DNA of 64,000 nt from an uncultured delta proteobacterium. Its GTDB lineage: Bacteria; Desulfobacterota; WTBG01; CAIYCZ01. The DNA lies in contig CAWDOY010000042.1 in assembly GCA_963803975.1 (NCBI GenBank), positions 1 through 64,000 of the forward strand, in the 5' to 3' direction. How positions within the stretch are numbered: position 1 is the first letter of the stretch; each line of letters opens with the position of its first letter. The translations under genes and the position numbers were made by a program. Positions 28,727 to 50,015 of the stretch are shown here, in pieces. The notes beneath the pieces were generated by a model, which was not told where the DNA came from, searched no databases, and saw nothing but the letters and a program-made list of their open reading frames with translations.

Positions 28727-28853
28727 ATCACTCAAGGGGAATCCGGGAACAGCCATAATCGTTTTTATTCTTTGGTCTTTCACCTTTTTGAGGTGTCACT
28801 GGTTTACCAACATCTCTTCCAGTCGCGACATAAACTTAATCCGGGATAAAAGC

Positions 28854-31800: not shown

Positions 31801-32042
31801 TTAATGAGAAGCCAGCTAATGCAGATTTGCTTCCCGCAGAGGTTACCTGTGACGAACAGCTTTCAAGTTCAAACCCCTTAAAAAAAGCTGCTCAAAGTGC
31901 AAAAGAGCATGCTGAAAAAAATATTATTTTGTATGCATTAAAAATTTGTCGCAATAATTATCCGCAAACAGCACAGAAGCTAAAGATCAGCCGTGCCTAT
32001 CTTTATGAGAAAGTAAAAAAGTATGGAATAACAAAACCATAA
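28854..32042 (+). CDS. Hybrid PAS-PAS-histidine kinase-receiver-sigma-54 AAA+ activator-HTH
   Basis: ITHEFRTPL (H box), NLIGNAFKFT, DTGIGI, GAGIGL; receiver LIVDDN/DVLMPEMDG/KPF; GETGTGKE, GAYTGA, LLDEIGEM, FREDLYYR; Fis-type HTH. Confidence 0.93.
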   Translation: MNEFNVVKETFDIIYGSLPMPIFLFDEKARLIKANQAFLDLSKANAADLQSFFVASFFKVLKTYRFPVPDRYVTELTSLSGEVIPVELNYTKFSGADDYAKGCIVFLTDLRETHKLKEHINQLAIEKDVLKIQLEGEDPDQALLERKKLEQQLKDEKAFLENILESCGDGIIIFDGKGTITRVNEAFTRIVGKDKKKITGIFSSLGPAEGTFKSTTGEMITLDQSYREYTYRQVEKFVKLKDGEKIENWELYAFNKNGEVVPLDATATVQRNASGLMTGSVCVLRDITERKKAESAIREAYQFRSQFFTNITHEFRTPLTLVIGPAEEILRGTFGKINKSISGQLTVALMNARRLLKLINQLLDFSMLESGAKNIMFEKKDLKKFTAAILDSFALIAKKKHIKLTFNAERDLPDVPIDPGKMEKILFNLIGNAFKFTPEKGSITVTITKQVGFRAGTDWNEKVANDSCIKTAVPEGNCAKISIHDTGIGIKEEDLPKIFDRFNQGSISYNNKQGGAGIGLAYAKELAEFMGGHITVSSQYGKGSAFSIYLPVDGPQVNKKADAGTSDEELSLQAAVELSDVYQEEDIIPESISGTKPLILIVDDNPDIRQYVSGIITRDYDFIPARNGNEALQRLETHVPDVILCDVLMPEMDGHELLKRVKAKPGLQEIPFIFLTARADTEMKIEGLEKGADDYIVKPFNSLELLARIKSLLRIRDLLRTAKAQEKRIDTLTQKLQGKYHYGSIMGNSPSMRKIYQLIEAIKDSDSNVLISGETGTGKELVANAIHYNSPRKNGPMVSVNCGAIPKELMEREFFGHVKGAYTGAVDSRKGYFAEADKGTLLLDEIGEMDKDMQVKLLRVLERGEMMQVGAAVPTRVDVRLVAATNKNLLAEVQKGNFREDLYYRIHVIPIHLPPLRHRTEDIPLLIDLFLKNFQKKFKKAFPSFTEKEISLFMDYSYPGNVRELENIVERFCLLGDDVANLFNEKPANADLLPAEVTCDEQLSSSNPLKKAAQSAKEHAEKNIILYALKICRNNYPQTAQKLKISRAYLYEKVKKYGITKP

Positions 32043-32240: not shown

Positions 32241-32256
32241 TGGCATATTTTTTGGT
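32241..32256 (+). promoter_or_regulatory. Candidate sigma-54 (-24/-12) promoter
   Basis: TGGCATATTTTTTGGT against consensus TGGCACGNNNNTTGCW (the -12 C is G here); lies between the activator gene and the 32330 start, in an AT-rich region. Confidence 0.45.
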
Positions 32257-32329: not shown

Positions 32330-34283
32330 ATGAAACTGTTGGACACTGGTTTTATTGGTAACATTGAGATTAAAAATCGTATCGTTATGGCGGCCATGGG
32401 CGGCCATGGGATGCATGAGCCTGACGGAGACTGGGGTGAACGCTATCTGGCTTATTTTGAGGCCAGAGCCCGCGGCGGTGTTGGCCTTATTACGACCGAG
32501 GCGACCTTCGTTTCCCAGGCATTGGAGCCTTTTGCAAAAAGTTTGTTTAACGTGGCCTCTGACAAACATCTGGCTTCGATGCGCCGCCTTGCAGATATAC
32601 TTCATTCCTATAATTGCAGGCTGAGCATTCAGCTGACTGCCGGGTTCGGCCGCGTTGTCCCGTTCCCCACAGTACCCGAAGGCGTTAAGCCGGTTTCGGC
32701 ATCAGAAAACAGTTATTTTTATTTTCCTGACGACCCTGCATGGACAACCAGGGAGATAACGACTGAAGAAGCAGAGGCTCTTGCCCGGGCTTTCGGCTAC
32801 GCTGCGATGCGCTGCCGCGAGGCAGGAGCGGACTGTGTTGAGCTGCACGGCCACGAGGGCTATCTTCTGGATCAGTTCATGACCGGCCTCTGGAACAGCC
32901 GCAATGACCGCTACGGCGGTTCCCGGGAGAAGCGGCTCACCTTTGCCCGTGAATCAATCGAGGCAATCCAGCGCGAAGCCGGCACTGATTTCCCGATTAT
33001 CTACCGCTATGGCATTACCCACTATCTTGAGGGCGGACGGGAAGAAGAGGAAGGGCTGTGGATAGCCGGAGAGCTTGAGAAAATGGGAGTCAGCGCACTG
33101 CACGTTGACGCCGGCTGCTACGAGACGCACTGGTGGCCCCATCCGCCCCAGTATGCACCGCCGGGCTGCCTGGTGGATCTGGCAGGGAAAGTCAAAAAGG
33201 TCAGCAGCCTGCCGGTTATTACCGTAGGTCGTCTGCACTACCCTGATGTGGCTGAAAAAGCACTGGCCGAGGGCAAGGCCGACTTTGTCGCCATCGGCAG
33301 GGGCCTGCTCTCTGAGCCGGAATGGGTGAACAAGGTTCAGAGCAACAGGATCGCTGAGATCATTCCCTGCTTAGGCTGTCATGAAGGCTGCAAGTGGCAG
33401 ATGATAGTCGGGGAACCGACCAGCTGCTCGCTGAACCCCACCACCGGGCATGAAACCGATCGGCAACTTATTCCGCTGAAGCAGAAACGCACTCTCCTGG
33501 TGGTCGGCGGCGGACCGGGTGGCATTGAAGCAGCCCGGGTTGGAGCAGAGCGCGGTTTTGACGTTACCCTGTGGGAGGCCTCTGACCGGCTGGGTGGAAA
33601 TCTCTGGCCCGCTGCAAAGCCTGATTTCAAGCATGACCTTGCAGACTACATAAAATATCTCAATGGACTTGTACGGCGCTTGCCCGTCAATGTTGTGCTT
33701 AATAAAAAGGCCACAGCCGGGGATATCCAAAACTTTGGCGCAGACTATGTTATCCTTGCTACCGGAGCAAACATGGAGCCGCCCCCTTTTAACAGCTGGA
33801 CAACAGATAGATTGCTGACAGTGATCCAGGTGCTGAGCGGCATGGAGCCGCAAGGAGAAAGAATACTGGTCATGGGCGGCGGTATTCTCGGATGTGAAAC
33901 CGCGGTTTATCTGGCGCGCCGGGGCAAGCTGGTTACCATCAGTACCAGGGGGGATGCCGACGCACTGGCTGCAGACCACTTTGACCACAATAACCGTGAA
34001 ATGCTTCTGCTGATGATACAGGCTGCCACTATCAATGTGCTGCCAGGCACGGTGCCGGTAAGGCTTGAAAAAGACGGTGTTGTGGCCAGGCAACAAGGTG
34101 TAGAGACGAAGATTGCAGCTGACAGTCTTGTTTTTGCAGGTCGATTCATGCCGGAAAACAGTCTTAGCAAGGCCTTTGGCGACTAGAGGGAATATTTTCA
34201 GCATTGGTGACTGTGTGGAACCCGGCCGGATTATGGATGCTGTGTGGGGGGCTTTTAAGGTCGTACGAGCAATTGAACAATAG
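32330..34283 (+). CDS. Old-yellow-enzyme family NADH:flavin oxidoreductase with 4Fe-4S and FAD domain (2-enoate reductase/BaiCD-like); frameshift near 34180
   Basis: IKNRIVMAAM, ARARGGVGLI, LHGHEGYLLDQF, N.RNDRYGGS, CLGCHEGC..CSLNP, VVGGGPGG; tail IFSIGDCVEPGRIMDAVW in the next frame. Confidence 0.9.
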
Positions 34284-34570
34284 CTCATATCTTTGTCTTT
34301 TTCTTAACTGCAGATAAACACGGTTGAAAAAAAGATGCAGGATACTATGGACAGATATACACGGGACGAATGCTAACCCTGTTTTTATCAAGCTGAGTAT
34401 CAGACACGAAAGGGAATTCGCACTACCGAATGAATTTACGGAAGTGCGTATCTCAGACAACAATTGAAGCGTTATGTAAAACTGCTTGCGGGTTATGCAG
34501 TTTTCACAAACCTATTACCTCAGGATAATGAGAGCCTTCAATCGACCCATATGAACGACGAGAGAACATA

Positions 34571-35275
34571 ATGAATAATAATCCCCCGAACAACAGCAAA
34601 AAAACAGTAGTTGTCGCAGGCGCGACAGGAAGGGCCGGCAGATGTATTATAAAAGAATTGTTGCGCAGCGGTTATCGCGTACGGGCACTGCTGGTACCTC
34701 CCTTTGATTCGCCCGATCCGTCAGGGCTCATCCAGCCAGAGATAGAGCTGGTACAAGGAGACCTTGGCTCAGCAGCATCTCTTGAACTGATTATGGAGGG
34801 TGCTGACTATGTGATAAGTGCCATCGGATCAAAAAAACCGTTTAGCAAAAAGGAAAACAACCGGATCGACAACCTGGGCAATCAGAACCTTGCAAGAGCT
34901 GCACAGTCAAAGGGATTGCAGCACCTGGTGGTTATCTCTTCGACGGGCGTTGGTGATAGCAGGGAGGCTGTTCCATGGCTGTACCGCATAGCAATGGGAC
35001 CGGTACTGAAGATGAAGGAAAAATCCGAGAATTTCATCAGGTCCTGCGGCATTGCCTATACGATTATCCGACCCGGGGGATATACGGAAAAAGCATTACC
35101 GGATGATATTGTTTTCGGGGAAGGCGGTAAAATTTCCGGTCTGGTAAAAAGAGAGCAAATTGCCCGCGTATGTGTCGCTGCGTTAAGCAACCCGGCAATG
35201 AGAAACAGGACCTTTGAAGTTGTCAATGCCGCAACCTTGAAAGAAGAGCGACGTAAATTTGTCATAACAGTTTGA
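34571..35275 (+). CDS. Atypical SDR / NAD(P)H-binding protein (NAD_binding_10, BLVRB/NmrA-like)
   Basis: VVAGATGRAG, VQGDL, VISAIGS and YTIIRPGG motifs. Confidence 0.85.
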   Translation: MNNNPPNNSKKTVVVAGATGRAGRCIIKELLRSGYRVRALLVPPFDSPDPSGLIQPEIELVQGDLGSAASLELIMEGADYVISAIGSKKPFSKKENNRIDNLGNQNLARAAQSKGLQHLVVISSTGVGDSREAVPWLYRIAMGPVLKMKEKSENFIRSCGIAYTIIRPGGYTEKALPDDIVFGEGGKISGLVKREQIARVCVAALSNPAMRNRTFEVVNAATLKEERRKFVITV

Positions 35276-35523
35276 CCGGTGCTTTTTCATTACTGTCTGC
35301 TTCAGGCTGTCAACCGGAAGCAGCAGGGAACTCATAAGGAAACGGTTGCTGCGCAGGGTATAAGCCCCTGCGGGATTTTCGGTTCGTCATTGATACATGC
35401 AGCAGCACCTATCGTGTGCTGCTGGTCAGCATTGATTAAAATGCGCTGCTGCTACAAGGAAGGGTCCGGGCATGCATGCTTTTCTCTCTATGTCCGGATA
35501 CCTGATTTTTACAAAAAGGATCT

Positions 35524-37899
35524 GTGACGGTGAAAAAGTTTGCTGAATTCATTATTCGTAGGCGCATCCTGATTTTAGTCATCATCAGTATTGTCACCGG
35601 TTTTTTCATGTATGAGCTTACCAGTCTCTCGGTAAAGACAAAAATTGCTGACCTGCTGCCACAGAAACACCCCTACATAAAAGTCCATAATAAAATCAGG
35701 CATATTTTTGGCGGGTCCAATCAGGTACTCATTATGGTCCAGGTCCGCACGGGTGATATTTTCAATCAAAAGACCCTCACCAAGATCCAATGGATTACCC
35801 GCGAGCTTGAAAATATACCCGGAGTTGATCCATACAAAATCAGGTCCATTGCCGTATCAAAGATGAAGACCTTTAAATACACCTCGGGAACCATGCAGAT
35901 TGATCCGCTCATGTATCCCGACATTCCGCGCAATGAACAAGAGATGAATACGCTCCGCGATAATATATACAGCAATCCGCAGTATTACGGGCAAAACGTA
36001 TCCTATGACAGTAAAAAGAGCCTTATCACGGTAGATTTTCTGGAAGAGGACATCGACTACCGTACGGTGTTCAATGAACTCAGCCGTATCAGGCAGCATA
36101 CCGAGGATGAAAACCATATCGTCAGCATTGCCGGCGAGCCAATGCATCTGGGCTATATTGACCAGCTCACGGGCCAGGTTCTGATAGTGCTCGGCGGAAC
36201 GGTTTTCAGCATGATCATAATGCTCTTTATATACTACAAAAGTATTCGGGCAGTGGTTATCCCGGTATTGTCTGCTGCAATAAGCGCTGTCTGGGGGTTG
36301 GGCTTTATGGCCCTTGCCGGGTTTAACCTCGATCCGCTTATACTGGTTTTGCCATTTCTCATTGCCCTTATGACCGCGCGCCATTCCATGCAGTGCTTAA
36401 GCCGTTATCTGGAAGAGTATGCGACCGCTAAAAATATCCAAACAGCAGCAGTAGCGACGATTGAAAGCATGTTCCTTCCCGGCGTTACCAGCATTATTAC
36501 CGATGCGCTGGGCATTGCCCTGGTTGCTATTGCGGTAATACCGGTACTGACAAACATTGCCGTTGCATGCAGTTTCTGGTGCATCGCAACAGTTTTTCTC
36601 TCTGTGATTTTTACCCCTCTTTTACTTTCATTCATTCCAGAGACAAAACGAATGAGAAAGTATATGCAGCGGTCACTGGATCAGGAAAGGCAGGATTATC
36701 GCGACAGATTTCTCAGCATGGTCGGACGCTGGATACCCCGGCGGGGGAAATGGTATGTTACTGCAGTTACTCTTGTTATGGTTATCGTGGGACTTAATTA
36801 TGCCCAGCAGATAAACGTTGGAGATTTTATGCCCGGCTCTTCAATCTTATGGCCCTTTCATAGATACAACAAGGATGCATTCAGGATTACTTTCAGCATG
36901 CCGTTGCTCAATCCGCTTTACATTATTCTTGAGGGCGAGGGGGGAAAATTTGATGACGAAAAAGGAGGCGGCTTTGTTACCCAGGCTGCAACGCTCAGAG
37001 AGATGAACAGGTTTACCCGGTATATGATGCAGCATGAACGGGTGATGTTTGCCATGTCAATTGTTAGTACTGTACCCAGATTTTTAATGTCAACCTATGA
37101 GGATGATCCCCAGTGCTTTCACCTGCCCCGGGAAGACGAAGCCCTGCATTTCATTACCCGCCGACTTCTCCACTCAGGTGAACCCGGCACCTGGGATAAG
37201 TATGTGGACACGGAAGAAACCTATGCAAATATAGTAATTTACTGCCGCGATAAAATGCCCAAAACCATTGAAGGCGTATTTCAGCACATACAGGCGTATT
37301 TAGCCAAAAATCCCGGCCCGCCGGGGGGGAAGTATCGGTTAGCAGGTGGCGCTGTCGGGGTTCAGGCAGCAGTTCGCGAGGTCATCGCAGATGCTCAGAT
37401 ATGGAATCTCATCCTTGCGCTGGGAGGGGTGTGGCTGTTCTGTGCGCTTGAGTTCAAGTCAATCACTGCCGGGCTTATACTTACCATACCGCTTGCCATT
37501 TCCAATGTCCTAACGTTTGCCCTCATGGGTGCCTACCAGATCGGGCTCACGGTTAATACCTTTCCGGTGGCTTCCGTGGGCATCGGGCTGGGGGTGGATT
37601 ACGGCATCTATTTTGTCGGCCGGCTGGTGGAAGAGAAAGAGAAAGGAGTAACGCTTACCGCAGCAATATACAAAGCACTCACCACCAACGGCAAATCTAT
37701 TATTCAGATAGCAACAACTATTACGCTCGGGCTTGTTTTGTGGGCATTTTCACCCCTGAAATTCCAGGCTGAGATGGGCATCCTGCTGGCTATTCTCTTG
37801 TTTTTGAATATGCTTGGTGCTCTTTTTCTTGTGCCGGCGTTGATCTGCATCCTTAAGCCAAAATTTATAACTAATGTTCATCCAGCCACGCAAGAATAG
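35524..37899 (+). CDS. MMPL/RND-family transporter
   Basis: Two halves, each 1 TM + periplasmic loop + 5 TM; GIGLGVDYGIY motif. Confidence 0.9.
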   Translation: MTVKKFAEFIIRRRILILVIISIVTGFFMYELTSLSVKTKIADLLPQKHPYIKVHNKIRHIFGGSNQVLIMVQVRTGDIFNQKTLTKIQWITRELENIPGVDPYKIRSIAVSKMKTFKYTSGTMQIDPLMYPDIPRNEQEMNTLRDNIYSNPQYYGQNVSYDSKKSLITVDFLEEDIDYRTVFNELSRIRQHTEDENHIVSIAGEPMHLGYIDQLTGQVLIVLGGTVFSMIIMLFIYYKSIRAVVIPVLSAAISAVWGLGFMALAGFNLDPLILVLPFLIALMTARHSMQCLSRYLEEYATAKNIQTAAVATIESMFLPGVTSIITDALGIALVAIAVIPVLTNIAVACSFWCIATVFLSVIFTPLLLSFIPETKRMRKYMQRSLDQERQDYRDRFLSMVGRWIPRRGKWYVTAVTLVMVIVGLNYAQQINVGDFMPGSSILWPFHRYNKDAFRITFSMPLLNPLYIILEGEGGKFDDEKGGGFVTQAATLREMNRFTRYMMQHERVMFAMSIVSTVPRFLMSTYEDDPQCFHLPREDEALHFITRRLLHSGEPGTWDKYVDTEETYANIVIYCRDKMPKTIEGVFQHIQAYLAKNPGPPGGKYRLAGGAVGVQAAVREVIADAQIWNLILALGGVWLFCALEFKSITAGLILTIPLAISNVLTFALMGAYQIGLTVNTFPVASVGIGLGVDYGIYFVGRLVEEKEKGVTLTAAIYKALTTNGKSIIQIATTITLGLVLWAFSPLKFQAEMGILLAILLFLNMLGALFLVPALICILKPKFITNVHPATQE

Positions 37900-37991
37900 G
37901 AAAAGCAAAGCAGCATGAATAATAGATATCGCTGAACATTAGGAGATTTATTGGAATGTGCAGCAAACACAAAACGAAAGGAGGGGTTCCC

Positions 37992-39605
37992 ATGAAAGAC
38001 AAATTTTTTATCCCCGGCGTCATCGCAGGGGTACTGTTATTCTTTTCCGTGCTTCCCCGGCACTGTTCAGCTTCGCTGGATTTTTTCGATGGAAGACTCA
38101 GGGTAAAGGGGAGTTTGTATGAATTCATGATTTACCGTACGCAAGTAACCGACGAAGAGCGGCAGTACCGGGACACCGAATGGGGGCTTATGCGCACCAA
38201 AGGTACCCTTGAGCTGCTGTACAAAGCGGTTGAGAATGACAAGCTTCTCGTAAATCTATTCGGGTTTTTCAAGTACTGGCATGAATCAGTACCGGACTTT
38301 GATAACAAGTACCGGCGCAGTATTGCACCGCAGGACAGAAAAAAATATCAAGGGCCTTTATTTGACCAGGATGACTGGATCAATGAGGCCTATGCAGATA
38401 TTTACTATGGGCCCTGGAACATCCGGCTGGGTAAACAGATCGTGTTCTGGAGCGAGGTAGAGATGGTGCGCACCATTGACCGGATCAATACCCTTGATTT
38501 GCGCTATACCACCCCCGGAATTGACCCGTGGGACGAAATAAAGCTGGGACTGTGGATGATGCGCGGGTTCTACAACTCTACCCTGCCGGGGCAGCTTGTT
38601 TTTGAATGGATCTGGATTCCGGGAGATTTTGAGCAGGTCAGGACCCCAACCGACGGGACCAGCATGGCCGGCGGCGTTGTTAGACCGGAGGGTCCGGAGG
38701 GTCGCAGGCCGCGGCCATTTGGGCAGAAAGCATTGGCCGACCTTTTGTTTCAGCGGGCACGGCCGGCTGTTACTCTGCGCAATTCATCCTGGGCCTTAAG
38801 AATCCGGGGCAATTCAGGGGTTAATCTTTTCAAAGAGGATTATCTGCTTGACTGGACCGTAAGCTGGTTTCACGGCATGGAGACAAGTCCTGTTGCCCGC
38901 ACAAAAACCCTTGGGAAACCCAGCGCAACCAATTTAAACCCCAACACCCTGAATGGACTTATGGGGAGGAATGCGGTGAGCCGTGTCTTCGGTCTGCCAC
39001 TCCCGCAGGTGCCCTATTACAGTCTTTTCGAGTATAAATTTTTTGATGCAATCGGGGCAAGTTGTCAAACCCTCGTACCGGCAATAGAGTCGGTTGTGCG
39101 CGGTGAACTGTCTTATGAAATTGGCGTGCCCATCAACACAACCTTTCCCAAGAACATTGAGCCATCGGGCGACTTCATAACCGGCAACTCAGAACGTGAC
39201 CAGGTGAATGTTGGTCTTACTGTTGATCGACCGGTCCTCATCCCCTGGCTCCAGGAACGCGGGTGGGCCGCATTTGATTGTTCTTTAGGCTGGAGTGCGC
39301 AGTGGCGGCTTGGCAATGTCAGCCGCAGGTGGTCATCGTTTGGCTGGGGGGATAAGTCCCAGAGCAATTTGTCGGCATTGGTTAAAGGCAAGTTTTATCA
39401 TGAAGAGTTCCGGCCGGTAATTCGCTTTTTGTACAATACCCGCAACTGGGGCTACGGCGTCATAGCCTGTCAGTATGCGCCTGGAGAGCATATGCGCTAT
39501 GAAGCAGGATACCTGGGATTTTTTGCCAAAGATACGACCGACTCAAGTGAAGCCTCAATGGCACGCGGGGATTGCCTCTATTTTCGTATCGGGTATGAGT
39601 TTTAA
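37992..39605 (+). CDS. DUF1302-like outer-membrane beta-barrel
   Basis: Signal peptide; EAYAD, IRLGKQIVFWSE, DRIN.LD; C-terminal YFRIGYEF beta-signal. Confidence 0.8.
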   Translation: MKDKFFIPGVIAGVLLFFSVLPRHCSASLDFFDGRLRVKGSLYEFMIYRTQVTDEERQYRDTEWGLMRTKGTLELLYKAVENDKLLVNLFGFFKYWHESVPDFDNKYRRSIAPQDRKKYQGPLFDQDDWINEAYADIYYGPWNIRLGKQIVFWSEVEMVRTIDRINTLDLRYTTPGIDPWDEIKLGLWMMRGFYNSTLPGQLVFEWIWIPGDFEQVRTPTDGTSMAGGVVRPEGPEGRRPRPFGQKALADLLFQRARPAVTLRNSSWALRIRGNSGVNLFKEDYLLDWTVSWFHGMETSPVARTKTLGKPSATNLNPNTLNGLMGRNAVSRVFGLPLPQVPYYSLFEYKFFDAIGASCQTLVPAIESVVRGELSYEIGVPINTTFPKNIEPSGDFITGNSERDQVNVGLTVDRPVLIPWLQERGWAAFDCSLGWSAQWRLGNVSRRWSSFGWGDKSQSNLSALVKGKFYHEEFRPVIRFLYNTRNWGYGVIACQYAPGEHMRYEAGYLGFFAKDTTDSSEASMARGDCLYFRIGYEF

Positions 39606-39675
39606 CCTGCACGGGTGCGTGCCCGTTCAGTGGTTGTTTGGGCAGGACGCTGTATTCAAAACACAGGAGGAGATT

Positions 39676-40941
39676 ATGAAAAAAGTGTTGATGAGCATGA
39701 TTGTTCTACTGTCATCGTGGTGTGTCAGCCTTGCACCAGGTGTTGCCGGCGAGATAACATTTCCGACCCGCAGCTATGAAGGTGAAGAGCTGGCAAAGGT
39801 GCGCGAGTGGGAAAAGACTTGGGCGGGCAAGAAAGTAGCAACTGAAAATGCTGATCAGGTCAAAGACTTTCTGCATGAGGCTGTATATAACACACTAAAA
39901 AATCCCAAGGGTTTCGGTGCAGAGTCGCTGTGGTTCAGTGTAGTGCCGTATCGGCCTTATACAATATCGTCGGGCATGATTGCCGCCACTAAAAAAAATG
40001 CGCCTCAAAGCAAGCTCGATAATGACGGCATGCTGGCGGGGTATGGCGATGTTGCCGGGATCCCCTTTCCACAGCCCAAAACAGGTCTTGAGATGGCCTG
40101 GAATTTTGACGGCAACTCCCATGGAGACAGTCACCAAGAGGAGAACATTGGTGATGTTGTTAATTGCCAGCAAAAAACCGAGCGTAGTGCAGGAATGCTT
40201 CGCTGGGAATTGTACTGGATCGGACGAGTAGATTCTGAGCCGCTTCCCCGCATTCCCGAAAAAGAAAATCAGCGGGGCATAGCACGTTCATGGTTTCAGC
40301 GTCACACGGCCCCGGTTGATTTTGCTGATAGCACAATGCTAGAGCTCAAATATCTGGACCATACAAAACAGGAAGATCTATGGGTTTACACAGTGATGTT
40401 CAGAAGGATCAGGCGTTATACAGCAAGCCAGCGGACCGACTCAATTGACGGGACCGACATGGTCTTTGACGATCAGGACGGATGGTACACGCATGTTACC
40501 CGTAACACCTACGACAGTAAAGGCAGGGCTGATCTTCTGGTTGCACGACATCAGGATGCCAAGCAGCTCCAGAGGGTCAAAGGCCAGGCATTCTGGAACG
40601 GTGTGCAGCGCGAACGGGTTAATCACTGGGTCGTTGAGGTAAAAAACAAGGAGAAGGGATATCTGTACATTAAGCAGATATGGTACCTGGACCCTGAGAC
40701 CTGGCAGATGAACTTCAAGGTAATGTACAATCGCAAGGGTGAGCTCTGGAAAATGTATGAACTGTTTTATGATGAGTATCCGACAGCCTGTGGTGAAAAA
40801 ACGTCATTGTTCAGCGCTGAGCATTCGGTCGATCTGATCCGCCATCACGGTAGCCCAAATATCCGTGAAGTGAAGAATGTGGGAGCATCTATACGCCCTG
40901 ATTATTTTCAGACTAAGAGCCTGAAGGACAAAAGTTATTAA
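39676..40941 (+). CDS. DUF1329-family periplasmic protein (LolA-like)
   Basis: GIPFPQPKTGLEMAWN, LWVY...RRIRR, RTD..DGTD and YNRKGELWK motifs. Confidence 0.85.
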   Translation: MKKVLMSMIVLLSSWCVSLAPGVAGEITFPTRSYEGEELAKVREWEKTWAGKKVATENADQVKDFLHEAVYNTLKNPKGFGAESLWFSVVPYRPYTISSGMIAATKKNAPQSKLDNDGMLAGYGDVAGIPFPQPKTGLEMAWNFDGNSHGDSHQEENIGDVVNCQQKTERSAGMLRWELYWIGRVDSEPLPRIPEKENQRGIARSWFQRHTAPVDFADSTMLELKYLDHTKQEDLWVYTVMFRRIRRYTASQRTDSIDGTDMVFDDQDGWYTHVTRNTYDSKGRADLLVARHQDAKQLQRVKGQAFWNGVQRERVNHWVVEVKNKEKGYLYIKQIWYLDPETWQMNFKVMYNRKGELWKMYELFYDEYPTACGEKTSLFSAEHSVDLIRHHGSPNIREVKNVGASIRPDYFQTKSLKDKSY

Positions 40942-40981
40942 GCAAGAAATGGGCAGCCATAGCTATTGTTGAGGGTTATAA

Positions 40982-42040
40982 ATGATGACAAGGATACAAA
41001 TAAAATTGGTTCTTATACCGGCTGTGCTGGTCATGGTTTTCGGTTGTGACAGGTTTGACCGTTCCAGGATACAGATGCCGGCTTTCAACTTTGTCACGAG
41101 AGAAAATCTGCATAGCATTGCCCGGGTTGATGCGCAGCATATCTGGGTGAGCGGTAATTACGGGACTATCCTGTGCAGTGCCGATGGCGGGAAGACATGG
41201 GAAAAGCAAAACAGCGGCATCGCTGAGGAACTGCTGGGCTGTATATCGTTTGTTAACCCTCAAGAGGGCTGGGCTGCCGGCGTCAGGGGAACAATTGTTC
41301 ATACAGCTGACGGAGGAAAAACCTGGGGGGTGCAGCCAAGCGGTATAGAGCAGGATATCCATGATCTTTTTTTCCTGGACGCTCACTATGGCTGGGCGGT
41401 CGGCGAGAGCGGGACGGTTTTGCATACAGATGACGGCGGCAAACACTGGAAGCGGCAACGAGAGCCGGAGGATAGATACTTTAATGATGTTTTTTTTGTT
41501 GATCGCAAAACCGGGTGGATCGTTGGTGAATTCGGGACCATCTTACATAGTGCTGATGGGGGTGCAACCTGGCAGCCACAAGAGTGTCCAGAGCTTGCTG
41601 CTCTTGTAAAAAATGCTGAATGGGACCGGCCGCTGCCCGCGTTGTACGGGACGTATTTTCCTGATAAGGACCGGGGCTGGATCGTCGGGATGGATGGTGT
41701 CATCATCAGGACGGAAAATGGGGGAAAGACCTGGGCCATGGTAAAGCCGGTTTCCGAAAAACCCCTGTACTCTATTGTAATGCACGGCGCAAAAGGATGG
41801 GCGGTGGGCAATGAGGGCGTTTATGTAATGACTGAGAATGGCGGGGACACCTGGTCAGTAAAAAATCAGGCGCTGAAAACCAAATTCTGGCTGCGCGCGG
41901 TGTCCTTTGGGGATGATAAGCGCGGGCTTATTGTTGGCGCCCAGGGCACCATTGCGCTAACTGATGACGGGGGCTTTTCCTGGAAGCTGATATCAGGCTA
42001 CAGCTACGATATGAAAGAATTCGGGCTGGCTGATTTCTAA
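40982..42040 (+). CDS. YCF48-like/BNR-repeat beta-propeller lipoprotein
   Basis: Lipobox VFGC; about 7 repeats of GW.VG..GTI.(H/R)T.DGG.TW. Confidence 0.9.
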   Translation: MMTRIQIKLVLIPAVLVMVFGCDRFDRSRIQMPAFNFVTRENLHSIARVDAQHIWVSGNYGTILCSADGGKTWEKQNSGIAEELLGCISFVNPQEGWAAGVRGTIVHTADGGKTWGVQPSGIEQDIHDLFFLDAHYGWAVGESGTVLHTDDGGKHWKRQREPEDRYFNDVFFVDRKTGWIVGEFGTILHSADGGATWQPQECPELAALVKNAEWDRPLPALYGTYFPDKDRGWIVGMDGVIIRTENGGKTWAMVKPVSEKPLYSIVMHGAKGWAVGNEGVYVMTENGGDTWSVKNQALKTKFWLRAVSFGDDKRGLIVGAQGTIALTDDGGFSWKLISGYSYDMKEFGLADF

Positions 42041-42192
42041 CAGGTTGTTGAAAAAGCAGTTTTCTCCCAGGCTGGTCAAAAACATCCGGATGCAAGGCGC
42101 GCGAAATCGTGAGGAATGAGGCGTACTTTATGGTACGTCGCAATGACGAGGGATGAGCGCAACGCAGCAGATGGGTGTTTTTCAACACCCTG
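42041..42192 (+). mobile_element. MITE copy with CTAA target-site duplication
   Basis: CTAA|CAGGTTGTTGAAAAA...TTTTTCAACACCCTG|CTAA; the left TAA is the stop codon of the YCF48 gene. Confidence 0.88.
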
Positions 42193-42229
42193 CTAAGGTT
42201 TATGTCCGTTATGTGGAAAGGAGCACATT

Positions 42230-44021
42230 ATGAACAGACGCACAGTCAATAACCTTCTCTGTATTATTCCCCTGGCTGCTGGTCTTCTGCTGGGTTCATT
42301 GTCTTGCAGGCCCGCCGGGAAAAAAATCGGCGTGCTGTATGTACTCCACGGAGGTATGAAGACCAATGGGCCCCAGTACCTGTGGGATGCCGTGGTGCAG
42401 CAGTTTTCTTATGAACACAACCATTCTATTTATAATTATGTTATCTGGGATCCTTCCCAGTGGCCAAATGTTTTGGATCGGAACACAACCGATTTTGCAA
42501 GGCGGTTTCTGATGATGTATGACTTTGGATATGAGCGCATGGGGGGCATCGATCCTTATCCGGACATCAGTGATAAGCAGCTGGCGCACTTGAAGACTGA
42601 ACTGGAAAACAACACGCGCGGCTTGAAATTTGAAGTGGACTGGGTTGGTTATTTAAGCGCAGACGATGTGGAGCATTACCCGTATCCCCGTTTTATTTAT
42701 AATATTCCCGATGAACAATACCGGGTATCCGCCCGCCAGCGGAGTGTCAAAATGTACCTACTGCGGGGAAGGAGAGCCGGACGGCCCCTGGGAGACTTGT
42801 GATCCTGAGCGCTACAACGCAGATGGACCTGTCGAGCGGCTGCTTAAAAAGGGGGTCACGAGTATCATTATGGTTGATATGACTACCAGCGGGGTTCGCT
42901 TTTCCAAAACTTTTGATGTGATCCAGATGACCAAGCTGGCTCTCAATAAATGGAACAATGAACACGGAACCTCTATCCCCCTGGTGTGGGTCAATGACCC
43001 CAATAATGTAATGGAGCGATCATATCCAACAAAACCCGAAGGATGGACACGCATCAAAAAAGCTCCTGAGGTAGACCCGCAGGTTCCCCTGGAAGGAAAT
43101 CCCAATCCAATTGCGGAAGATCCAATGCTCGCTCAATTGCACGCAGAAGGTATAGAAAAGGGCTTTTCCGATTCGGTTCCAGATAATGCTACCGGTGTCA
43201 TTCTGTTTAACCATGCTCTGCACGACTATAATGAGTATTTTGACCCTAAAATCGATGACACTCTTATCTTAAATAAAAATATTAAGGCCTTGCTTATTGA
43301 GCGGCACCCTGACATTGATCCCGACCGTATCATAGGAGCCTTTGGAGGGATCATGGAAGTAAATCCGGTACATGGCCGTGAGGAACGGACGCGGGAAATG
43401 CGCGGAGAAACCTATGGCTATGCATGGCTTTACGAGAGCGACAAGCAAATGCCTGGTGGAGAATGGGGCTACCGATACTGGGATGCTTTAGAATATTTAA
43501 AGAACTGTGGTGTTAAGCACATTGTTATTGGATTCCCGCAGATGATTACTGACAATAACTTAAACCTTATTGAAGTACCGCAGCAGATTGGCAAGGAGAT
43601 CGGTATCAAGACCTGGGCAAAATATGACCAGGGTGATTTTACTTTGTACCCGGAAGTCGGCCACCCCTTTGCAGATTACTGGGGAGTCTGGGTTGATACT
43701 GATTGCGGTGAAGCGGCGTGCTGCTTTGAAATGGGGGGATGCGCTGATGGCCGGCCATATCCGCCGCCACGGCAGACCCCGATTGATGCGCCGCGTGGGG
43801 ATTTGGACCCCTCCCTTGCCTTTGACCTGAGCGCCTACGGGCATCTGGGGTTTGATGAAACCGGGACCAGCGGACCTCCTGATCCTGAAAAACCAGTACA
43901 GGATCAGTACACCGGCACCTGGGATTTGTATAGACCGGCAAATGACGACCCCCGGCTGGGAGAGCTGCTGGCACGTCATGTATTAGATGCTGCTCTTAAA
44001 ACACTGCAACCGGAGAAGTAG
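42230..44021 (+). CDS. Lipoprotein with a class II chelatase (ferrochelatase/HemH-like) fold; frameshift ~42715
   Basis: Lipobox SLSC; KIGVLYVLHGG, LLKKGVTSIIMVD, GVILFNHAL and GVKHIVIGFPQMITDN..LIEV occur in the order of HemH GVLL.NLG / G....V.LP / LLFSAHG / G.K.V.V.P..F.SDHLETL.EI. Confidence 0.55.
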
Positions 44022-44054
44022 AAGAATACTATATAGAAAACCAAGGAGAGTCAT

Positions 44055-44762
44055 ATGAAAGCAATCCCCTATTATGAACGTATGCAGGAACATCTGGCAC
44101 CTTTTAATCTGTCCCCAATGAAAGAATATAACGGAGATGATATCACACAATTTGAAAACATTAAGACGGACATGATGACACAGCTTCTGCGGGCATATAA
44201 AGCTGACAAGTTAGACAAAATTGTCACGCTTACCACTGATATCATGGAAGGAAAAATTTTCGTTTATGGCACCACGATTGTTCCAACGGATGAATACCCA
44301 CTCCCCATCTTTACCTCTGAAATAGTTCAAGCGGTAAACCATCTCAGTTTACGGGTGGATTTTATCCCCCTGGCAGATTGTGCCCGTGACCTTGATTATA
44401 TGGAAAAATACATGATGCCCATGGAAGACCTGTGGAAACAACATAGAGATATTGAGGGATCCGGGATTGAGCGCTATACCTGGCAGCGGGTTATGCTTTC
44501 ACCTTTTTACACATATGGAAAATATAAATATACCATTGAAAATATTGAGGAAACGGCATTGCAAATTACTATTGACTATCTGAAGCTCTATATAAAACTC
44601 TGGTCCGAGGTTCAAAAGGCAGATCCCGGCTATATGAAGTTGCTTAATGAAAGAAAGAGCGTAATGCTGAATACCATGCTGGAGAATGACCCGGGTGAAG
44701 GGCCTCTAAAACAAGCCTTTGGCAAAGAGGCAGCCCACAAAATTCTGTCACTTCTTTTTTAA
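44055..44762 (+). CDS. Ferredoxin-dependent bilin reductase / red chlorophyll catabolite reductase (RCCR)-like protein
   Basis: P..EYPLPIFTSEIVQ...VDFIPLAD...DYMEKY, R.MLSP, YLKLY..LW and ENDPG...LKQAFGKE.A..I...LF match the recalled FDBR/RCCR pattern. Confidence 0.8.
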   Translation: MKAIPYYERMQEHLAPFNLSPMKEYNGDDITQFENIKTDMMTQLLRAYKADKLDKIVTLTTDIMEGKIFVYGTTIVPTDEYPLPIFTSEIVQAVNHLSLRVDFIPLADCARDLDYMEKYMMPMEDLWKQHRDIEGSGIERYTWQRVMLSPFYTYGKYKYTIENIEETALQITIDYLKLYIKLWSEVQKADPGYMKLLNERKSVMLNTMLENDPGEGPLKQAFGKEAAHKILSLLF

Positions 44763-44825
44763 ACAACCCAGACCGTGAAGACTATGCCCGGAGGTATATA
44801 GGGCAAGGCCTGAAAGGGACGTCAA

Positions 44826-45281
44826 ATGAAAAATTATTTTTTATTACTGTCTGTGGCACTTTTTCTTTATGCCGGCGCCGGCTTTGCTGGCGAACAACCC
44901 CCGGTACGCGGGGTAGTTGAAAAAACAGGTGTTGACCTCAAACAGCAGGTTGTAAGGATACGCGGATACGAAGGTGTTTCTCCCCTGAACCTTTTCATAG
45001 AGCCGGGTACGGTGGTTATTTGGCTCAACCAGTATCAGGGAAAGATAAAAATAACCTTCCCTTCAAAAAGGGTGACGCTGGCATGTAAGAGCCCGGTTAA
45101 TTTTTCGCTCAATAACCAGGGGTTCTTTGAATCAAACGCTGTCGAGTTTGGTGCGGTTGCCAGCCTTTGTTTTATTGAATGTGGATCATTTGACTATATT
45201 ATAGAGCGAGCGCCTGTTTCGTCCACGGCAAAATATGAAGGCTTCAGATTTGAAGGAAAGATTATTGTTAAGAAAAAATAG
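44826..45281 (+). CDS. Secreted cupredoxin-like protein (copper ligands not evident)
   Basis: Signal peptide; P.NL.IEPGTVVIWLN, CF..CGSFDY and C-terminal G.IIV pattern. Confidence 0.55.
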   Translation: MKNYFLLLSVALFLYAGAGFAGEQPPVRGVVEKTGVDLKQQVVRIRGYEGVSPLNLFIEPGTVVIWLNQYQGKIKITFPSKRVTLACKSPVNFSLNNQGFFESNAVEFGAVASLCFIECGSFDYIIERAPVSSTAKYEGFRFEGKIIVKKK

Positions 45282-45296
45282 CAGAAAGGGTTCTAT

Positions 45297-45836
45297 ATGG
45301 TAGTACATGAACTAACACCGGAAGAAAGAAATCAGATGGTGGAGAAGGCGCTGATAAGAATGAAAATCAAGAGACAACATCTCTCCCGCGAAGAGCTGGA
45401 GAGGGCAATCATTGACTATCTCAGCAAAAAACAGCCTTGCAGTTTGGCAACCTGCGATAGGGACTGCACCCCCCGCATATCGGTAGTAGACTATGTCAAT
45501 GATGGTCTTACTATCTATATTCTCAGCGAAGGCGGGGATAAATTTAAAAACCTTAAAGAGAACAACAGGGTTGCCATTGGAATCGGTACCGGCTCGAAGG
45601 CTTTAAAAACAAGAGGTGTTAATATCTGGGGTATTGCCGAGGTTATTAGTGATGATATGCCCGAGTTTGCCCATGGTATAAAAATCTTACAACCTATACT
45701 GGATGACATGGCAGAGGTCTTGGGTTCACCTATTCAGATACCCAAGGGAATTCTCAGGCTGATCAAGGTTACGCCAACTAAAATAGTTTACCATCATACC
45801 ATGAAGGGGATTAAACATGCTGTTTGGGAAGCATAA
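45297..45836 (+). CDS. Pyridoxamine-5'-phosphate-oxidase-like split-barrel protein
   Basis: CSLATC...PRIS.V.Y, KFKNLKENNRVAI, GV.IWG.AE and LIKVTP motifs. Confidence 0.85.
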   Translation: MVVHELTPEERNQMVEKALIRMKIKRQHLSREELERAIIDYLSKKQPCSLATCDRDCTPRISVVDYVNDGLTIYILSEGGDKFKNLKENNRVAIGIGTGSKALKTRGVNIWGIAEVISDDMPEFAHGIKILQPILDDMAEVLGSPIQIPKGILRLIKVTPTKIVYHHTMKGIKHAVWEA

Positions 45837-45878
45837 TAGTAATAAGGTTTAGTTAGGCAGTGCCGAAAGACTGTCGCT

Positions 45879-45956
45879 GGTATTGCTGAAATTTCCCGGG
45901 AGGAACAGCAGGCACAGATTATTCAGGCGACCCTTGACTTGCTTGAGAAGCTTTAG
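45879..45956 (+). pseudogene. Short C-terminal remnant resembling an alpha/beta hydrolase
   Basis: GIAEISREEQQAQIIQATLDLLEKL*; ISREEQQ resembles the Abhydrolase_5-type C-terminus (recalled). Confidence 0.35.
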
Positions 45957-46057
45957 GTCAAAGCCGGCTTACAGCAAAACAAGGGAGATAGGTTTGACCT
46001 CGCGCAGCTCCACAGCTAAACGGTAACGTTTAAAATTATTTCAATGAAGGATCAGTC

Positions 46058-46918
46058 ATGGCAGATAAGTTCACTGAAGTGCGTATGGTCGATAACTTTT
46101 ACCAGACCTCCAGTTTTTTTCCTATGCCGGTTGTTCTTGTGAGCACCCTGGCAGAGTCAGGGCAAACCAATCTGGGGCCCTACTCACTCTGTTTTCCTCA
46201 CAATATCACCGGAGGAAAAGATCATGCCATGATGCTTATTGCCCGCGGCACAAGCAATACGGCCACGAATATAATCCGGACCAGGGTGTGTGCCCTTAAC
46301 TTTATCCCGCATAAAAAGAAATACATGAAAAACTGCGTCATGCTGGGGTATCCGGGCGAGACCACTGAGGAAAAGATGAAAAACAGTATTTTTACCCTGA
46401 TACCATCTACCCGGCATGAAACACAAAAATCCGCGCCCTATCCTGACATTGTAGAAGAAGCTGTTCAAGTTTTTGAATGTACCTGGGATGACAGCTATCC
46501 TTTAAAGCCGCGCGAGGATCTAGTAGAATCCCACTTTCTGCTGCGTATTGATAAGCTTGTCATGAAGGAGAAATGGAGAGATTGCCTGCTTAAGGGTAAA
46601 GGGTTTCCCAGTTTGCCGATTGATTATGGATACCGGGATAATGTGCGCTTCTGGTTTTCACGGCAATGGCGGCCCTATGCGGTCAACATCCCCAAAGAAA
46701 AAGGCAACAAAATTGAAACGGTAAGGTATGCCTGTGACCGATTTGACCCGGCTATCACCTGGGAAGATGCAGCCTGCGCAAAAATAGTGAAAGTGCCAAA
46801 CATATTTTTAAATAAAGTTATCAGTGGCGTGGTGAAAACAGCAAAAGAGCAGGGGATTACGGTGATTACCCCTGAGTTTATGGACAAAATCCGGGATAAG
46901 CGCTCAACTGAGAAATAG
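46058..46918 (+). CDS. Flavin-reductase-like (DIM6/NTAB) split barrel fused to a C-terminal PCP_red (BchB C-terminal-like) domain
   Basis: PMPVVLVST....TNLGPYS, SNTA.NI, P..VEEA...FEC; tail ITWEDAACAKIVKVPNIFLNKVISGVVKTAKEQGITVITPEFMDKIR. Confidence 0.75.
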   Translation: MADKFTEVRMVDNFYQTSSFFPMPVVLVSTLAESGQTNLGPYSLCFPHNITGGKDHAMMLIARGTSNTATNIIRTRVCALNFIPHKKKYMKNCVMLGYPGETTEEKMKNSIFTLIPSTRHETQKSAPYPDIVEEAVQVFECTWDDSYPLKPREDLVESHFLLRIDKLVMKEKWRDCLLKGKGFPSLPIDYGYRDNVRFWFSRQWRPYAVNIPKEKGNKIETVRYACDRFDPAITWEDAACAKIVKVPNIFLNKVISGVVKTAKEQGITVITPEFMDKIRDKRSTEK

Positions 46919-46925
46919 TGCAGCT

Positions 46926-47048
46926 GGCCGACTAGAAAGAAACTTCTAGAGATCGGGCTGTCTAATGTGGCAGAAGACCTCGCAAAAAAAGGAAAGCTTG
47001 GCAGCCGACTGCCCGGCAATTACAGAGCTGCTGGGGAAAAAGAGCTGA
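46926..47048 (+). pseudogene. Orphan second copy of the AOR-1 3' end
   Basis: WPTRKKLLEIGLSNVAEDLAKKGKLG..CPAITELLGKKS* versus LPTRKRLAEIGLSDVAEDLAKKGKLGERECPAITELLGKPAA*; 47010-47039 is identical to 28373-28402. Confidence 0.88.
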
Positions 47049-47081
47049 GCAGTTCATTGAGGTTATGGTGAATAGATGATC

Positions 47082-47121
47082 GGCAGCCCTGTCATGAATG
47101 GCGGGGCTGCCGGTTTTGTTT
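47082..47121 (+). terminator. Intrinsic terminator
   Basis: CGGCAGCCCTG/CGGGGCTGCCG stem followed by TTTTGTTT. Confidence 0.65.
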
Positions 47122-47338: not shown

Positions 47339-47359
47339 GCATAAAAGACAGTGTTGGGT
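47339..47359 (+). other. attI-like recombination point at the head of the cassette array
   Basis: GCATAAA-N7-GTTGGGT; GTTGGGTGGC is the exact reverse complement of GCCACCCAAC (48403-48412) at the end of cassette 1, and no attC hairpin precedes it. Confidence 0.55.
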
Positions 47360-47393
47360 GGCTGGTGCAGGCACACCATCGGAGGTAGATACG

Positions 47394-48398
47394 ATGGCGA
47401 TTTTCTTGAAAGCGAAAAACCACGACAAGCGAAGTTTAAGGGCAAGTCTCCGTACTTCTCCTTTGCGGCTCGTGCTGACGGAATTTATAAAAGCAAGCCT
47501 CGCCCATTCTGCCTGCCGCTTGACCATGCAGAAGAAAATCTGTTTCCTGAAATTCGCCAAACCGCCATAGCCCACTTTGCTGCACACAGCATCAAATGGC
47601 ATGATGGGCAAAACGGGAAGCCAAGTAATCACCTTTGCGACTCCCAAGTCTGCTGCGTCAATTTCCTTTTTCCATTTACTAATCTGCCTCACGCGTTGGC
47701 AGAAGTGTTGCGCCACCTTTCCCACCATTCGAGAAATGCTCCCAATAGAAAGCGGGCAATACGTCACCTTCGAGTGGATTGGCCAAGAAAATTACTTGGG
47801 CGAGAAAATCTCCCGCAATGGCAAACGCACACGCGGCGCGAATTTCACAGCGCGGATGCGGCGGTTATGTTTGAGCGAACAGACGGAAAGCGACAGATTG
47901 TTTTGATTGAGTGGAAGTATACCGAGTCATATGGCGGCACATCGCTGAAAATTGCTAAAAGCGGCACAGACCGCACGACCATTTATAAGGCACTCTTCAA
48001 ACGCGATGATTGTCCTATCAATAAAGAACTGTTACCCGACTTCGACTCGCTTTTCTATGAGCCGTTTTATCAGTTTGTGCGGCAACAGTTGTTTAGCCAA
48101 TGAAATGGAACGAGCGCAGGAATTGGGCGCAAATACGGTAAGCGTGCTTCATATCGCCCCTGCTCATAACACTGATTTTCGCAAAGTGACCTCACCCAAA
48201 TTAGCAAAACTTGGCGAGACAGCCACAGAAGTTTGGAAAAAACTGGTGCTGACTCGCGGTAGGTTTATTAGTGTAAATACCGAGCAACTATTCGGTAGCC
48301 TATCCGCCGAGCAATTTCCCGAACTGCATGTGTGGCTAGAATATATCGGCATGAGATATGCCTGGGTTCGAGAAGGCACGGCAACACTTCCAAAATAA
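47394..48398 (+). CDS. Cassette 1: PD-(D/E)xK putative restriction endonuclease (PGN_0703-like); several frameshifts
   Basis: NHLCDSQVCCVNFLFP; SADAA...LIEWKYTE; FYQFVRQQ.LA. Confidence 0.7.
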
Positions 48399-48405
48399 AG
48401 GCGCC

Positions 48406-48467
48406 ACCCAACACGGGGTTGCAGGCGACGGGGAAAACCGCCCCGCGCCTGAACCCGACCGTAAGCT
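48406..48467 (+). repeat. attC site 1
   Basis: ACCCAAC...CGGGGTTGCAGGCGACGGGG/CCCCGCGCCTGAACCCG...GTAAGCT imperfect palindrome with extrahelical bases. Confidence 0.85.
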
Positions 48468-48483
48468 CACTTTGGAGGCATCG

Positions 48484-49922: not shown

Positions 49923-49975
49923 GCTAACAACAGCATGCAGCGGACGGCGCCGCGCGCCGCCGCTGAGCGTTATGC
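49922..49975 (+). repeat. attC site 2
   Basis: AGCTAAC AACAGCATGCAGCGGACGGCG...CGCCGCCGCTGAGC GTTATGC; the right arm looks about 6 nt short. Confidence 0.85.
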
Positions 49976-50015
49976 AGGATATAAAACTGAAATAAAAAAA
50001 TATTGAGAATAAATT

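Follow-up and report, generated by a model that had tools for sequence, protein, structure and literature searches.

Positions 32330-46918 of contig CAWDOY010000042.1 (assembly GCA_963803975.1, from an uncultured delta proteobacterium) lie within the 64,000-nucleotide stretch analysed here, called the window. They hold a run of genes in which an exported ferrochelatase-fold protein and a cytoplasmic reductase with the fold of ferredoxin-dependent bilin reductases (FDBRs) stand beside flavoenzymes and a four-part envelope module. Judged from the folds and the company that these genes keep, the substrate is very probably a tetrapyrrole of some kind. Most likely it is a chlorophyll breakdown product (a pheophorbide-type chlorin), and possibly haem or a bilin. 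On the same basis we lean towards reading the cluster as one module of a kit, spread across the lineage, with which a non-photosynthetic, largely anaerobic sediment bacterium would scavenge and reduce tetrapyrroles from its environment, probably chlorophyll derivatives. Open reading frame (ORF) positions and Pfam place every listed gene on the + strand, in the order given by the initial annotation, which had described a single co-oriented run. No description of such a cluster was found in the open-access literature.

The FDBR-fold and ferrochelatase-fold proteins

The gene at 44055-44762 (+ strand) encodes the cytoplasmic FDBR-fold reductase. It matches Pfam Fe_bilin_red (PF05996) at 60.6 bits against a cut-off of 31. 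Its AlphaFold2 model (pLDDT 94.5), compared with known structures by VIA, was closest to PebB (6qwq; Z 26.1, root-mean-square deviation (rmsd) 1.9 over 220), followed by HY2 (6kme; Z 25.6), PcyA (25.4), PebA (24.2) and RCCR (2zxk; 23.5). Coproporphyrinogen oxidases scored 17.3 and 12.4 and unrelated rows started at 5.5. Nine of the top ten structures (Z 12.4-26.1) are titled bilin reductase, RCCR or coproporphyrinogen oxidase; the other, 8xks_P, is named PcyA in a separate listing. The FDBR call of the initial annotation was thus correct by both profile and model.

E89 of 44055 aligns with HY2 Asn133, which is equated with PcyA Asp105 in Table 2 of PMC13446030, and D212 aligns with HY2 Asp256. 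E89, D102 and D212 were invariant in all 48 aligned homologs (picked from 108 matches), and none of the 48 FDBR-like proteins had a hydrophobic N-terminus. As aligned, 44055 keeps acids at both FDBR catalytic positions (PcyA D105 and HY2 D256). RCCR carries a Glu154/Asp291 pair.

None of the NCBIfam FDBR models came near its cut-off with 44055 (best 35.9 bits against 327), and the RCCR family PF06405 gave no match in the genome, where its control was also silent. Relationships were read from an unrooted tree of 103 rows (quick maximum likelihood, drawn with midpoint rooting) that included no PcyA or RCCR and whose input was biased to sequences retrieved with the 44055 clade. In this tree 21 PebA-, PebB- and HY2-like sequences, labelled from NCBIfam scores (4 of the 21 over cut-off), formed one clade with one unlabelled row (support 97). 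The window protein fell outside this clade and grouped with the Ca. Schekmanbacteria protein RMF97992.1 (57%; support 100). By this placement 44055 belongs to an uncharacterised FDBR clade that it has in common with Ca. Schekmanbacteria. The relatives P0247, P0242, P0272 and P0288 carry Dehalococcoidia and Ca. Schekmanbacteria names, and the family reaches beyond this class. One paralog in the genome of the window (G000:C24:10654-11451 and C36:33351-34148) has an N-terminal membrane anchor and a long branch in the tree, and possibly faces the periplasm. A phage search with an FDBR paralog gave no match.

The ferrochelatase-fold gene (42230-44021, + strand; ~598 aa) reads in the window as two ORFs, 42230-42802 and 42666-44021, due to one extra base at ~42714 that is omitted by the contigs of 3/4 other sequencing runs and is missing from orthologs. 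A second extra base at ~34181-34183, omitted by the contigs of 4/4 other runs and likewise missing from orthologs, produces the apparent stop at 34186 in the Old Yellow Enzyme (OYE)-type gene described below. Both genes are taken as intact because orthologs and contigs of other runs are free of the extra bases. We rejected true pseudogenes as an explanation, since both frameshifts are single bases that other runs' contigs do not contain. The split pieces of 42230 gave no ferrochelatase Pfam match and no PDB sequence match, and the fold was instead determined on the intact ortholog (L032:12819-14612; 598 aa, ~77-84% identical) from a related genome, G013. The AlphaFold2 model of this ortholog (pLDDT 92.8) found ferrochelatases in a Foldseek search (best E 2.9e-8). 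In VIA it matched B. subtilis CpfC (Z 24.4, rmsd 2.9 over 301), yeast ferrochelatase (21.6), SirB (16.8), periplasmic CbiK (15.6) and FetB (15.4), and its top seven structure matches were all class II tetrapyrrole chelatases. The chelatase-fold lipoprotein that had been called beforehand, like the FDBR, is therefore right as to fold, as seen on the ortholog, but does not read as a single ORF in the window, where an assembly indel splits the gene.

Within the family, 47/77 members touched PF00762 at E up to 1 (best 3e-5). A hydrophobic N-terminus in 64/77 makes export likely on the predicted sequences. Catalytic positions were taken from an hhalign profile alignment to E. coli HemH and nine ferrochelatases of the phylum. 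The catalytic His is kept (H330 on E. coli H194, human H263; His in 77/77), as is a later acid (E450, in 75/77), while the position of the pi-helix Glu (human E343, E. coli E275) is L446, with Leu in 74/77. Human ferrochelatase variants at H263 are inactive; the E343K variant, likewise inactive, is purified together with protoporphyrin (PMC9133952). Because the catalytic Glu is Leu, binding is likelier than classical chelation, and we infer that 42230 is an exported tetrapyrrole-binding protein. Demetallation is possible by analogy with what is proposed for IhtB/FetB (PMC12094164). The periplasmic demetallation step of the initial annotation is nevertheless doubtful, as ferrochelatases require the Glu that this family has replaced.

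Linkage in related genomes and in the genome of the window

The whole gene order, including a kinase gene upstream of the cluster, is intact in G013. Among the matches listed, G012 and G005 retain the MMPL-to-FDBR-to-PNPOx stretch; G030 and G036, which belong to another family, group the chelatase-like, FDBR and OYE genes but lack the envelope module beside them; and G008 and G023 show other reshuffled arrangements. The arrangement is not a product of chance, because G013 preserves it whole and G012 and G005 preserve most of it. In several families of one class the chelatase-like, FDBR-like and OYE genes remain linked even though their order has been reshuffled.

FDBR-like matches were present in 32/61 genomes, with 3-15 in each. 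The chelatase-like family (27/61) and the OYE ortholog (26/61, from up to 20 scored candidates in each genome) were found exclusively among these 32, as were 21 of the 22 genomes of the 61 with a DPOR-B-like gene. FDBR-like, chelatase-like, OYE and DPOR-B-like matches were all absent from one family of the class (0/8) and from 19 genomes belonging to other classes. The initial annotation had put its reading at risk on the genes co-occurring in other genomes, and they do. Physical linkage matters more than this census, because related genomes are not independent. Among metagenome loci of the chelatase-like family (the best 80 of 202 matches), an FDBR-like gene was found in 21/79 and in 13/36 of those of 8 kb or more, compared to 3.7% and 6.6%, respectively, of random windows of G000, itself an FDBR-rich genome. 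Counts of neighbours within 15 kb are lower bounds, as they draw on 150 of 289 FDBR rows and on place lists collapsed by hand. A listed FDBR-like gene lay no more than 15 kb from at least 20/38 OYE places, in at least 15/26 genomes, and from at least 21/78 chelatase-like places. Two protein families without a Pfam match also recur beside chelatase-like or OYE genes, one at L038:5580-6731 and L152:10845-11909 and the other at L076:11718-12413; the latter occurs in 13/79 chelatase-like loci.

The genome of the window (G000; 98% complete, 4.25 Mb, 50% GC) is rich in genes of tetrapyrrole-acting type. It has 22 PF05996 matches, 17 of them over cut-off and some of them near-duplicate contig copies or fragments, and its 14 distinct FDBR paralogs are spread over ~12 branches of the tree. 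There are five PF00762 matches, two coproporphyrinogen oxidase (CPOX)-like genes, seven FrhB/BciB-family matches and three nitrogenase-like B genes that score best against BchB/BchZ models, far below cut-off. A BchF match (E 6e-45) was found in G000 and in 11/41 genomes overall, in a search whose control was silent, and comA in 28/41 including G000. This context adds much support to the idea of a tetrapyrrole substrate put forward in the initial annotation.

Several of these genes are grouped. A single run on C50 (L152, G000:C50:21405-37527) contains a MarR gene, two NifH/BchL-like genes and N- and B-like genes with two PCP_red repeats. The same run has two alpha/beta hydrolases and, downstream of these and of L-L-N-B, a 74% paralog of the window OYE followed by DUF1302 and DUF1329 genes, as well as an SDR and a PNPOx gene. 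On C3, three chelatase-like genes and a GGR-family gene adjoin two N/B pairs. MarR regulators stand beside DPOR-like clusters and TetR-like ORFs (labelled by eye) beside related clusters, which suits inducible catabolism. The BchF-family gene L204 (G000:C12:63862-64329) stands alone, and in G010 (L208) its counterpart adjoins an FrhB/BciB-like ORF. The divergent HemF/CPOX-like genes (L155:8752-9534 and L156:7349-8176) score far below the NCBIfam cut-off and occur in a presumed anaerobe; in the C46 HemF/CPOX-like gene the profile match continues past a stop.

Haem oxygenase was found in 0/42 genomes with a working control, and type I reaction centre PsaA/B also in 0/42. G000 gave no match for the type II reaction centre (Photo_RC), BchG or BchH and none over cut-off for dsrA, while hemD, hemE and hemH were not found with E. 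coli queries. The stay-green Mg-dechelatase gave no match either, in a search whose control was silent.

Other genes of the cluster and its surroundings

Pfam confirmed the OYE, NAD_binding_10, MMPL, DUF1302, DUF1329, YCF48 and PNPOx families of the initial annotation. Several of the specific relationships read into them fared less well. The first gene (32330-34283, + strand) encodes an OYE/enoate-reductase-type flavoenzyme for FMN, Fe-S and FAD (Oxidored_FMN and Pyr_redox_2). Its active-site motif is HGHEGY in 22/25 ortholog loci, with no motif read in the other three, compared to HGDR in BilR (PMC10769871) and AHAH in BilV (PMC13252198). Against the BilR model NF045599 it scored 357-398 bits (cut-off 750), and BaiCD scored about equally. 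BilR and BilV were accordingly rejected as identities for this protein, and the proposed analogy to BilR fails on both motif and score. The NAD_binding_10 reductase (34571-35275, + strand; E 7.5e-36), of the family with the BVR-B/ChuY-type fold, is a variable companion, found beside the chelatase-like gene in 1/79 metagenome loci. ChuY/ShuY ranked fifth and sixth of its six PDB matches, and the protein lends no specific support to the tetrapyrrole reading. Between these two genes, positions 34322-34563 have no match in G013, which has instead a 130-aa regulator-like ORF (PadR-like, by eye).

The MMPL/HAE3 RND transporter (35524-37899), the DUF1302 outer-membrane protein (37956-39605; E 7e-9), the DUF1329/LolA-like periplasmic protein (39676-40941; E 7e-39, start set by ortholog length) and the YCF48/BNR propeller, a predicted lipoprotein (40982-42040; Pfam PSII_BNR/YCF48), all on the + strand, make up in one run the four-part design of AmeABCD. 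The initial annotation had taken this module for an importer, which is not supported. AmeABCD of Castellaniella defragrans, the one transporter of this design that has been tested, is described as a monoterpene exporter (PMC6394551), and at 6/13 DUF1302 sites in the genome none of the listed tetrapyrrole-type genes lies within 15 kb. Between the propeller and the chelatase-like gene is a ~160-bp intergenic repeat (42036-42200) that matches the genome 102 times by blastn, reaches very high contig depth in other runs and is absent from the equivalent site in G013.

Downstream of the FDBR, the gene at 44826-45281 (+ strand) encodes a small exported protein of 151 aa. Its cupredoxin-like label has the support of Atlas features below 0.9, with no Pfam match. 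A copper-protein role was rejected, since the protein has no His and so lacks the type 1 His-Cys-His ligand set; the label thus survives as perhaps a fold and not as a copper site. Twelve tblastn matches in the genome, several adjoining MMPL/DUF1302 genes, mark it as a companion of DUF1302 envelope modules. The PNPOx-type split-barrel protein (45297-45836, + strand; PNPOx_N) matched HutZ/HugZ models weakly (E 1e-4 to 1e-7, all below cut-off) and its best PDB match was Rv2991 (E 0.0014). Assignment to HugZ/HutZ or to the F420-dependent reductases was not supported, there being no specific relative, and the protein is no specific pointer to tetrapyrroles. In the last gene (46058-46918, + strand) the flavin-reductase-like domain and the PCP_red-like C-terminal tail were both matched as predicted, each below cut-off (Flavin_Reduct and PCP_red, E ~5e-4). 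A paralog (C3:160001-160874) sits inside a DPOR-like gene cluster, between the N/B pairs on C3 noted above.

Upstream, a PAS histidine kinase-receiver-sigma54 activator hybrid (28788-32042, + strand) has a counterpart of 83% identity at the equivalent position in G013 and is a possible regulator of the cluster from its domains and position. A sigma54-like word (TGGCA..TTGG) occurs at 32241, and the same pattern gave no match in L032. Across the promoter scan, 25 matches were not above shuffled sequence (20.6 ± 4.4), and an Rfam search of 26-56 kb gave no match. The run is closed by a terminator-like hairpin (47078-47115, + strand; a 17-pair stem followed by a T run), identified from consensus match only. 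In two RNA-library runs 28 and 29 of 30 bins are covered by contigs, but contigs cannot show transcription. Sequencing runs that contain close relatives of the window DNA carry the labels sediment, freshwater or simply metagenome.

An AFOR-family aldehyde oxidoreductase gene lies in three frame pieces at 26445-28414. Just ahead of the terminator, a 115-bp piece (46927-47039) is 84% identical to the 3' end of that gene (28288-28402) and is, by this match, evidently a remnant of a local rearrangement. After the cluster there is a defence-type island (47351-50963) with a REase-ARP nuclease, a TIR/SEFIR protein and a YozE-SAM protein, several of them apparently frameshifted.

Proposed function, alternatives and known systems

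If the cluster acts in scavenging, the exported ferrochelatase-fold lipoprotein would capture the macrocycle and hand it on, probably by binding or trapping because the catalytic Glu is missing. The DUF1302-DUF1329-YCF48-MMPL module would then move a hydrophobic pigment or product across the envelope, in either direction. In the cytoplasm the FDBR-fold enzyme, using ferredoxin electrons and E89/D212, would reduce a pyrrole-ring or methine double bond; the fold and the acids are those of 44055, and the reaction is that expected from the FDBR family. The OYE, split-barrel and flavin-reductase proteins might take out additional C=C or vinyl bonds, or else provide reduced flavin. Elsewhere in the genome the DPOR/COR-like, BchF, FrhB/BciB-family and GGR-like enzymes, the alpha/beta hydrolases and the other FDBR paralogs may handle other pigments or steps. 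The net effect would be an O2-independent reductive breakdown of macrocycle conjugation that could serve as an electron sink, a catabolic entry or detoxification. Of the uptake-and-catabolism reading in the initial annotation, the folds, the co-occurrence and the tetrapyrrole context hold up; demetallation is doubtful, the analogy to BilR fails and import is not supported.

A number of points weigh against scavenging and reduction. The case rests wholly on folds and gene company, and co-occurrence between genomes follows kinship and so is not independent. The chelatase-like gene was not matched in 5/32 FDBR-positive genomes, and DPOR-B places near a listed FDBR gene numbered only at least 3/30. 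HutW in G000 was not over cut-off (212 against 400 bits), which together with the absence of haem oxygenase bears on the source of a linear tetrapyrrole. The known roles of DPOR, BchF, BciB, GGR, CPOX and chelatases lie in biosynthesis. Nor is the organism certain to be a strict anaerobe, because Ca. Anaeropigmentia, to which G000 appears to belong by trait comparison, reportedly encodes cbb3 and bd oxidases (10.1101/2021.03.22.436540). Synthesis and export of the cell's own modified tetrapyrrole (a reduced chlorin, a bilin-like pigment or a cofactor) is an explanation that we consider somewhat unlikely. In it a hem trunk would feed DPOR-, BchF- and FDBR-like enzymes, HAE3 export would follow, and the chelatase-fold lipoprotein would hold the product outside. 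The presence of hemA, hemL, hemB and hemC in G000, the unsorted BchH/CobN-type chelatase matches in 15/20 relatives, the description of AmeABCD as an exporter and the reading of bch-like genes as synthesis genes in 10.1101/2021.03.22.436540 favour it, and the first three of these also count against scavenging. However, G000, although 98% complete, gave no BchH, BchG or HemE match for the queries used, and some 14 deeply diverged FDBR paralogs, with reshuffled gene order and patchy presence, suit many substrates better than a single fixed product.

Pigment detoxification or iron/metal salvage only, with the pigment bound, stripped or reduced to leuco forms and expelled without nutrient use, is in our view unlikely. 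It has a precedent in IhtB/FetB, a putative reverse ferrochelatase (PMC12094164), with FetB at Z 15.4 to the window family, and in export by AmeABCD, and it agrees with the searches made, including HutW and haem oxygenase, in which no ring-opening enzyme was identified. The 22 FDBR matches and three DPOR-like B genes would nonetheless be a large investment for a 4.25-Mb genome. That the folds have been repurposed for hydrophobic compounds other than tetrapyrroles (aromatic or N-heterocyclic CoA esters, steroids, terpenes) we regard as improbable. In its favour, the best PDB matches of the OYE are NCR (6qkg), a naphthoyl-CoA reductase whose top rank also weighs against scavenging, and 2,4-dienoyl-CoA reductase, and BaiCD scores as well as BilR. 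The 26 AFOR tblastn segments in the genome and the DUF1302 sites without tetrapyrrole-type neighbours point the same way, as does the fitness role of DUF1302/DUF1329 genes on fatty esters (10.1101/2020.07.04.188060). Set against this, the FDBR/CPOX, ferrochelatase, BchF and DPOR-B folds, the last with PCP_red, are kept in one lineage, linked, and with catalytic positions conserved.

Scavenging and reduction of environmental tetrapyrroles remains the reading that we favour, and the system would be new in kind if confirmed. Anoxic sediments receive much chlorophyll and haem, and microbes alter chlorophyll there. The cluster supplies small, soluble, well-folding candidate proteins. It also exposes a large uncharacterised bilin-reductase branch in organisms without a haem oxygenase match, which bears on the origin of the family and on possible new pigment chemistry.

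Compared to known systems, 42230 shares the class II chelatase fold and the invariant His with CpfC/PpfC, with IhtB/FetB of P. gingivalis and with Desulfovibrio CbiK, and shares export with IhtB and CbiK. It differs in its length (~598 aa), in large Cys-bearing insertions, in the Leu at Glu343/E275 and in being linked to reductases and not to TonB-type iron uptake genes. BilR and BilV (PMC10769871, PMC13252198) and ChuW/ChuY resemble the cluster in reducing tetrapyrroles without O2 by OYE or NAD(P)H reductases, whereas the window OYE carries HGHEGY and reaches about half the BilR cut-off, and its genome has no HutW over cut-off. The envelope module has the HAE3 RND, DUF1302, DUF1329 and BNR/YCF48 parts of AmeABCD and of P. 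putida PP_0765/0766/2018/2019, genes needed on fatty esters (10.1101/2020.07.04.188060). Those modules act on monoterpenes or fatty esters; the neighbours of the window module are tetrapyrrole-fold genes.

The closest counterpart to the genome as a whole is described in 10.1101/2021.03.22.436540. Ca. Anaeropigmentia, from lakes and wetlands, has coenzyme M genes, bchE, bciB, chlLNB, bchXYZ, bchF, bchC and chlP but no chlG and no reaction centre, and its orphan bacteriochlorophyll genes are explained there by lost photosynthesis, that is, as remnants of synthesis. G000 resembles it in comA, bchF, FrhB/BciB-family, chlLNB/bchXYZ-like and GGR-family genes, in giving no chlG or reaction-centre match, and in size and composition (4.25 Mb, 50% GC). 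The words 'bilin' and 'tetrapyrrole' do not occur in that paper, and neither the FDBR expansion nor the exported chelatase-like family is reported there. The present cluster offers a testable alternative to the published puzzle of bacteriochlorophyll-type genes without a reaction centre. We tentatively suggest that a class of sediment Desulfobacterota-type bacteria, probably Ca. Anaeropigmentia, may live partly on buried chlorophyll and other tetrapyrroles, dismantling their conjugation without O2 by means of a dozen or more FDBR-fold enzymes, DPOR/COR-like enzymes, BchF and exported pseudo-ferrochelatases. Were this so, the orphan bacteriochlorophyll genes would be degradative and Ca. Anaeropigmentia a biological agent of pigment diagenesis.

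With the characterised FDBRs and RCCR, 44055 has in common the fold (Z 23.5-26.1, rmsd ~2-2.5 Å), PF05996 and acids at PcyA D105/HY2 D256. It differs in its 13-20% identity, in scores far below the NCBIfam cut-offs, in lying outside the PebA/PebB/HY2 clade, in having no haem oxygenase match in the 42 genomes and in the 3-15 FDBR matches of each positive genome. The pre-PcyA clusters and the Ca. Schekmanbacteria outgroup of Rockwell et al. 2023 (PMC10151467) likewise place FDBR-like genes in non-phototrophs. The pre-PcyA clusters are described as carrying BBAG globins, V4R and Fe-S proteins and, in the pre-3 cluster, a haem oxygenase (PMC10151467, PMC13446030), while the window cluster, to which the globin and V4R searches were confined, has no globin, V4R or haem oxygenase Pfam. 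In PMC10151467 the Schekmanbacteria sequences fall in an RCCR-side outgroup, and the origin of FDBRs is proposed to postdate oxygenic photosynthesis. If the suggestion made here for the class is true, that proposal would be challenged, the FDBR fold would be most deeply diverse in anaerobes, and PebA, PebB and HY2 would form one branch among them.

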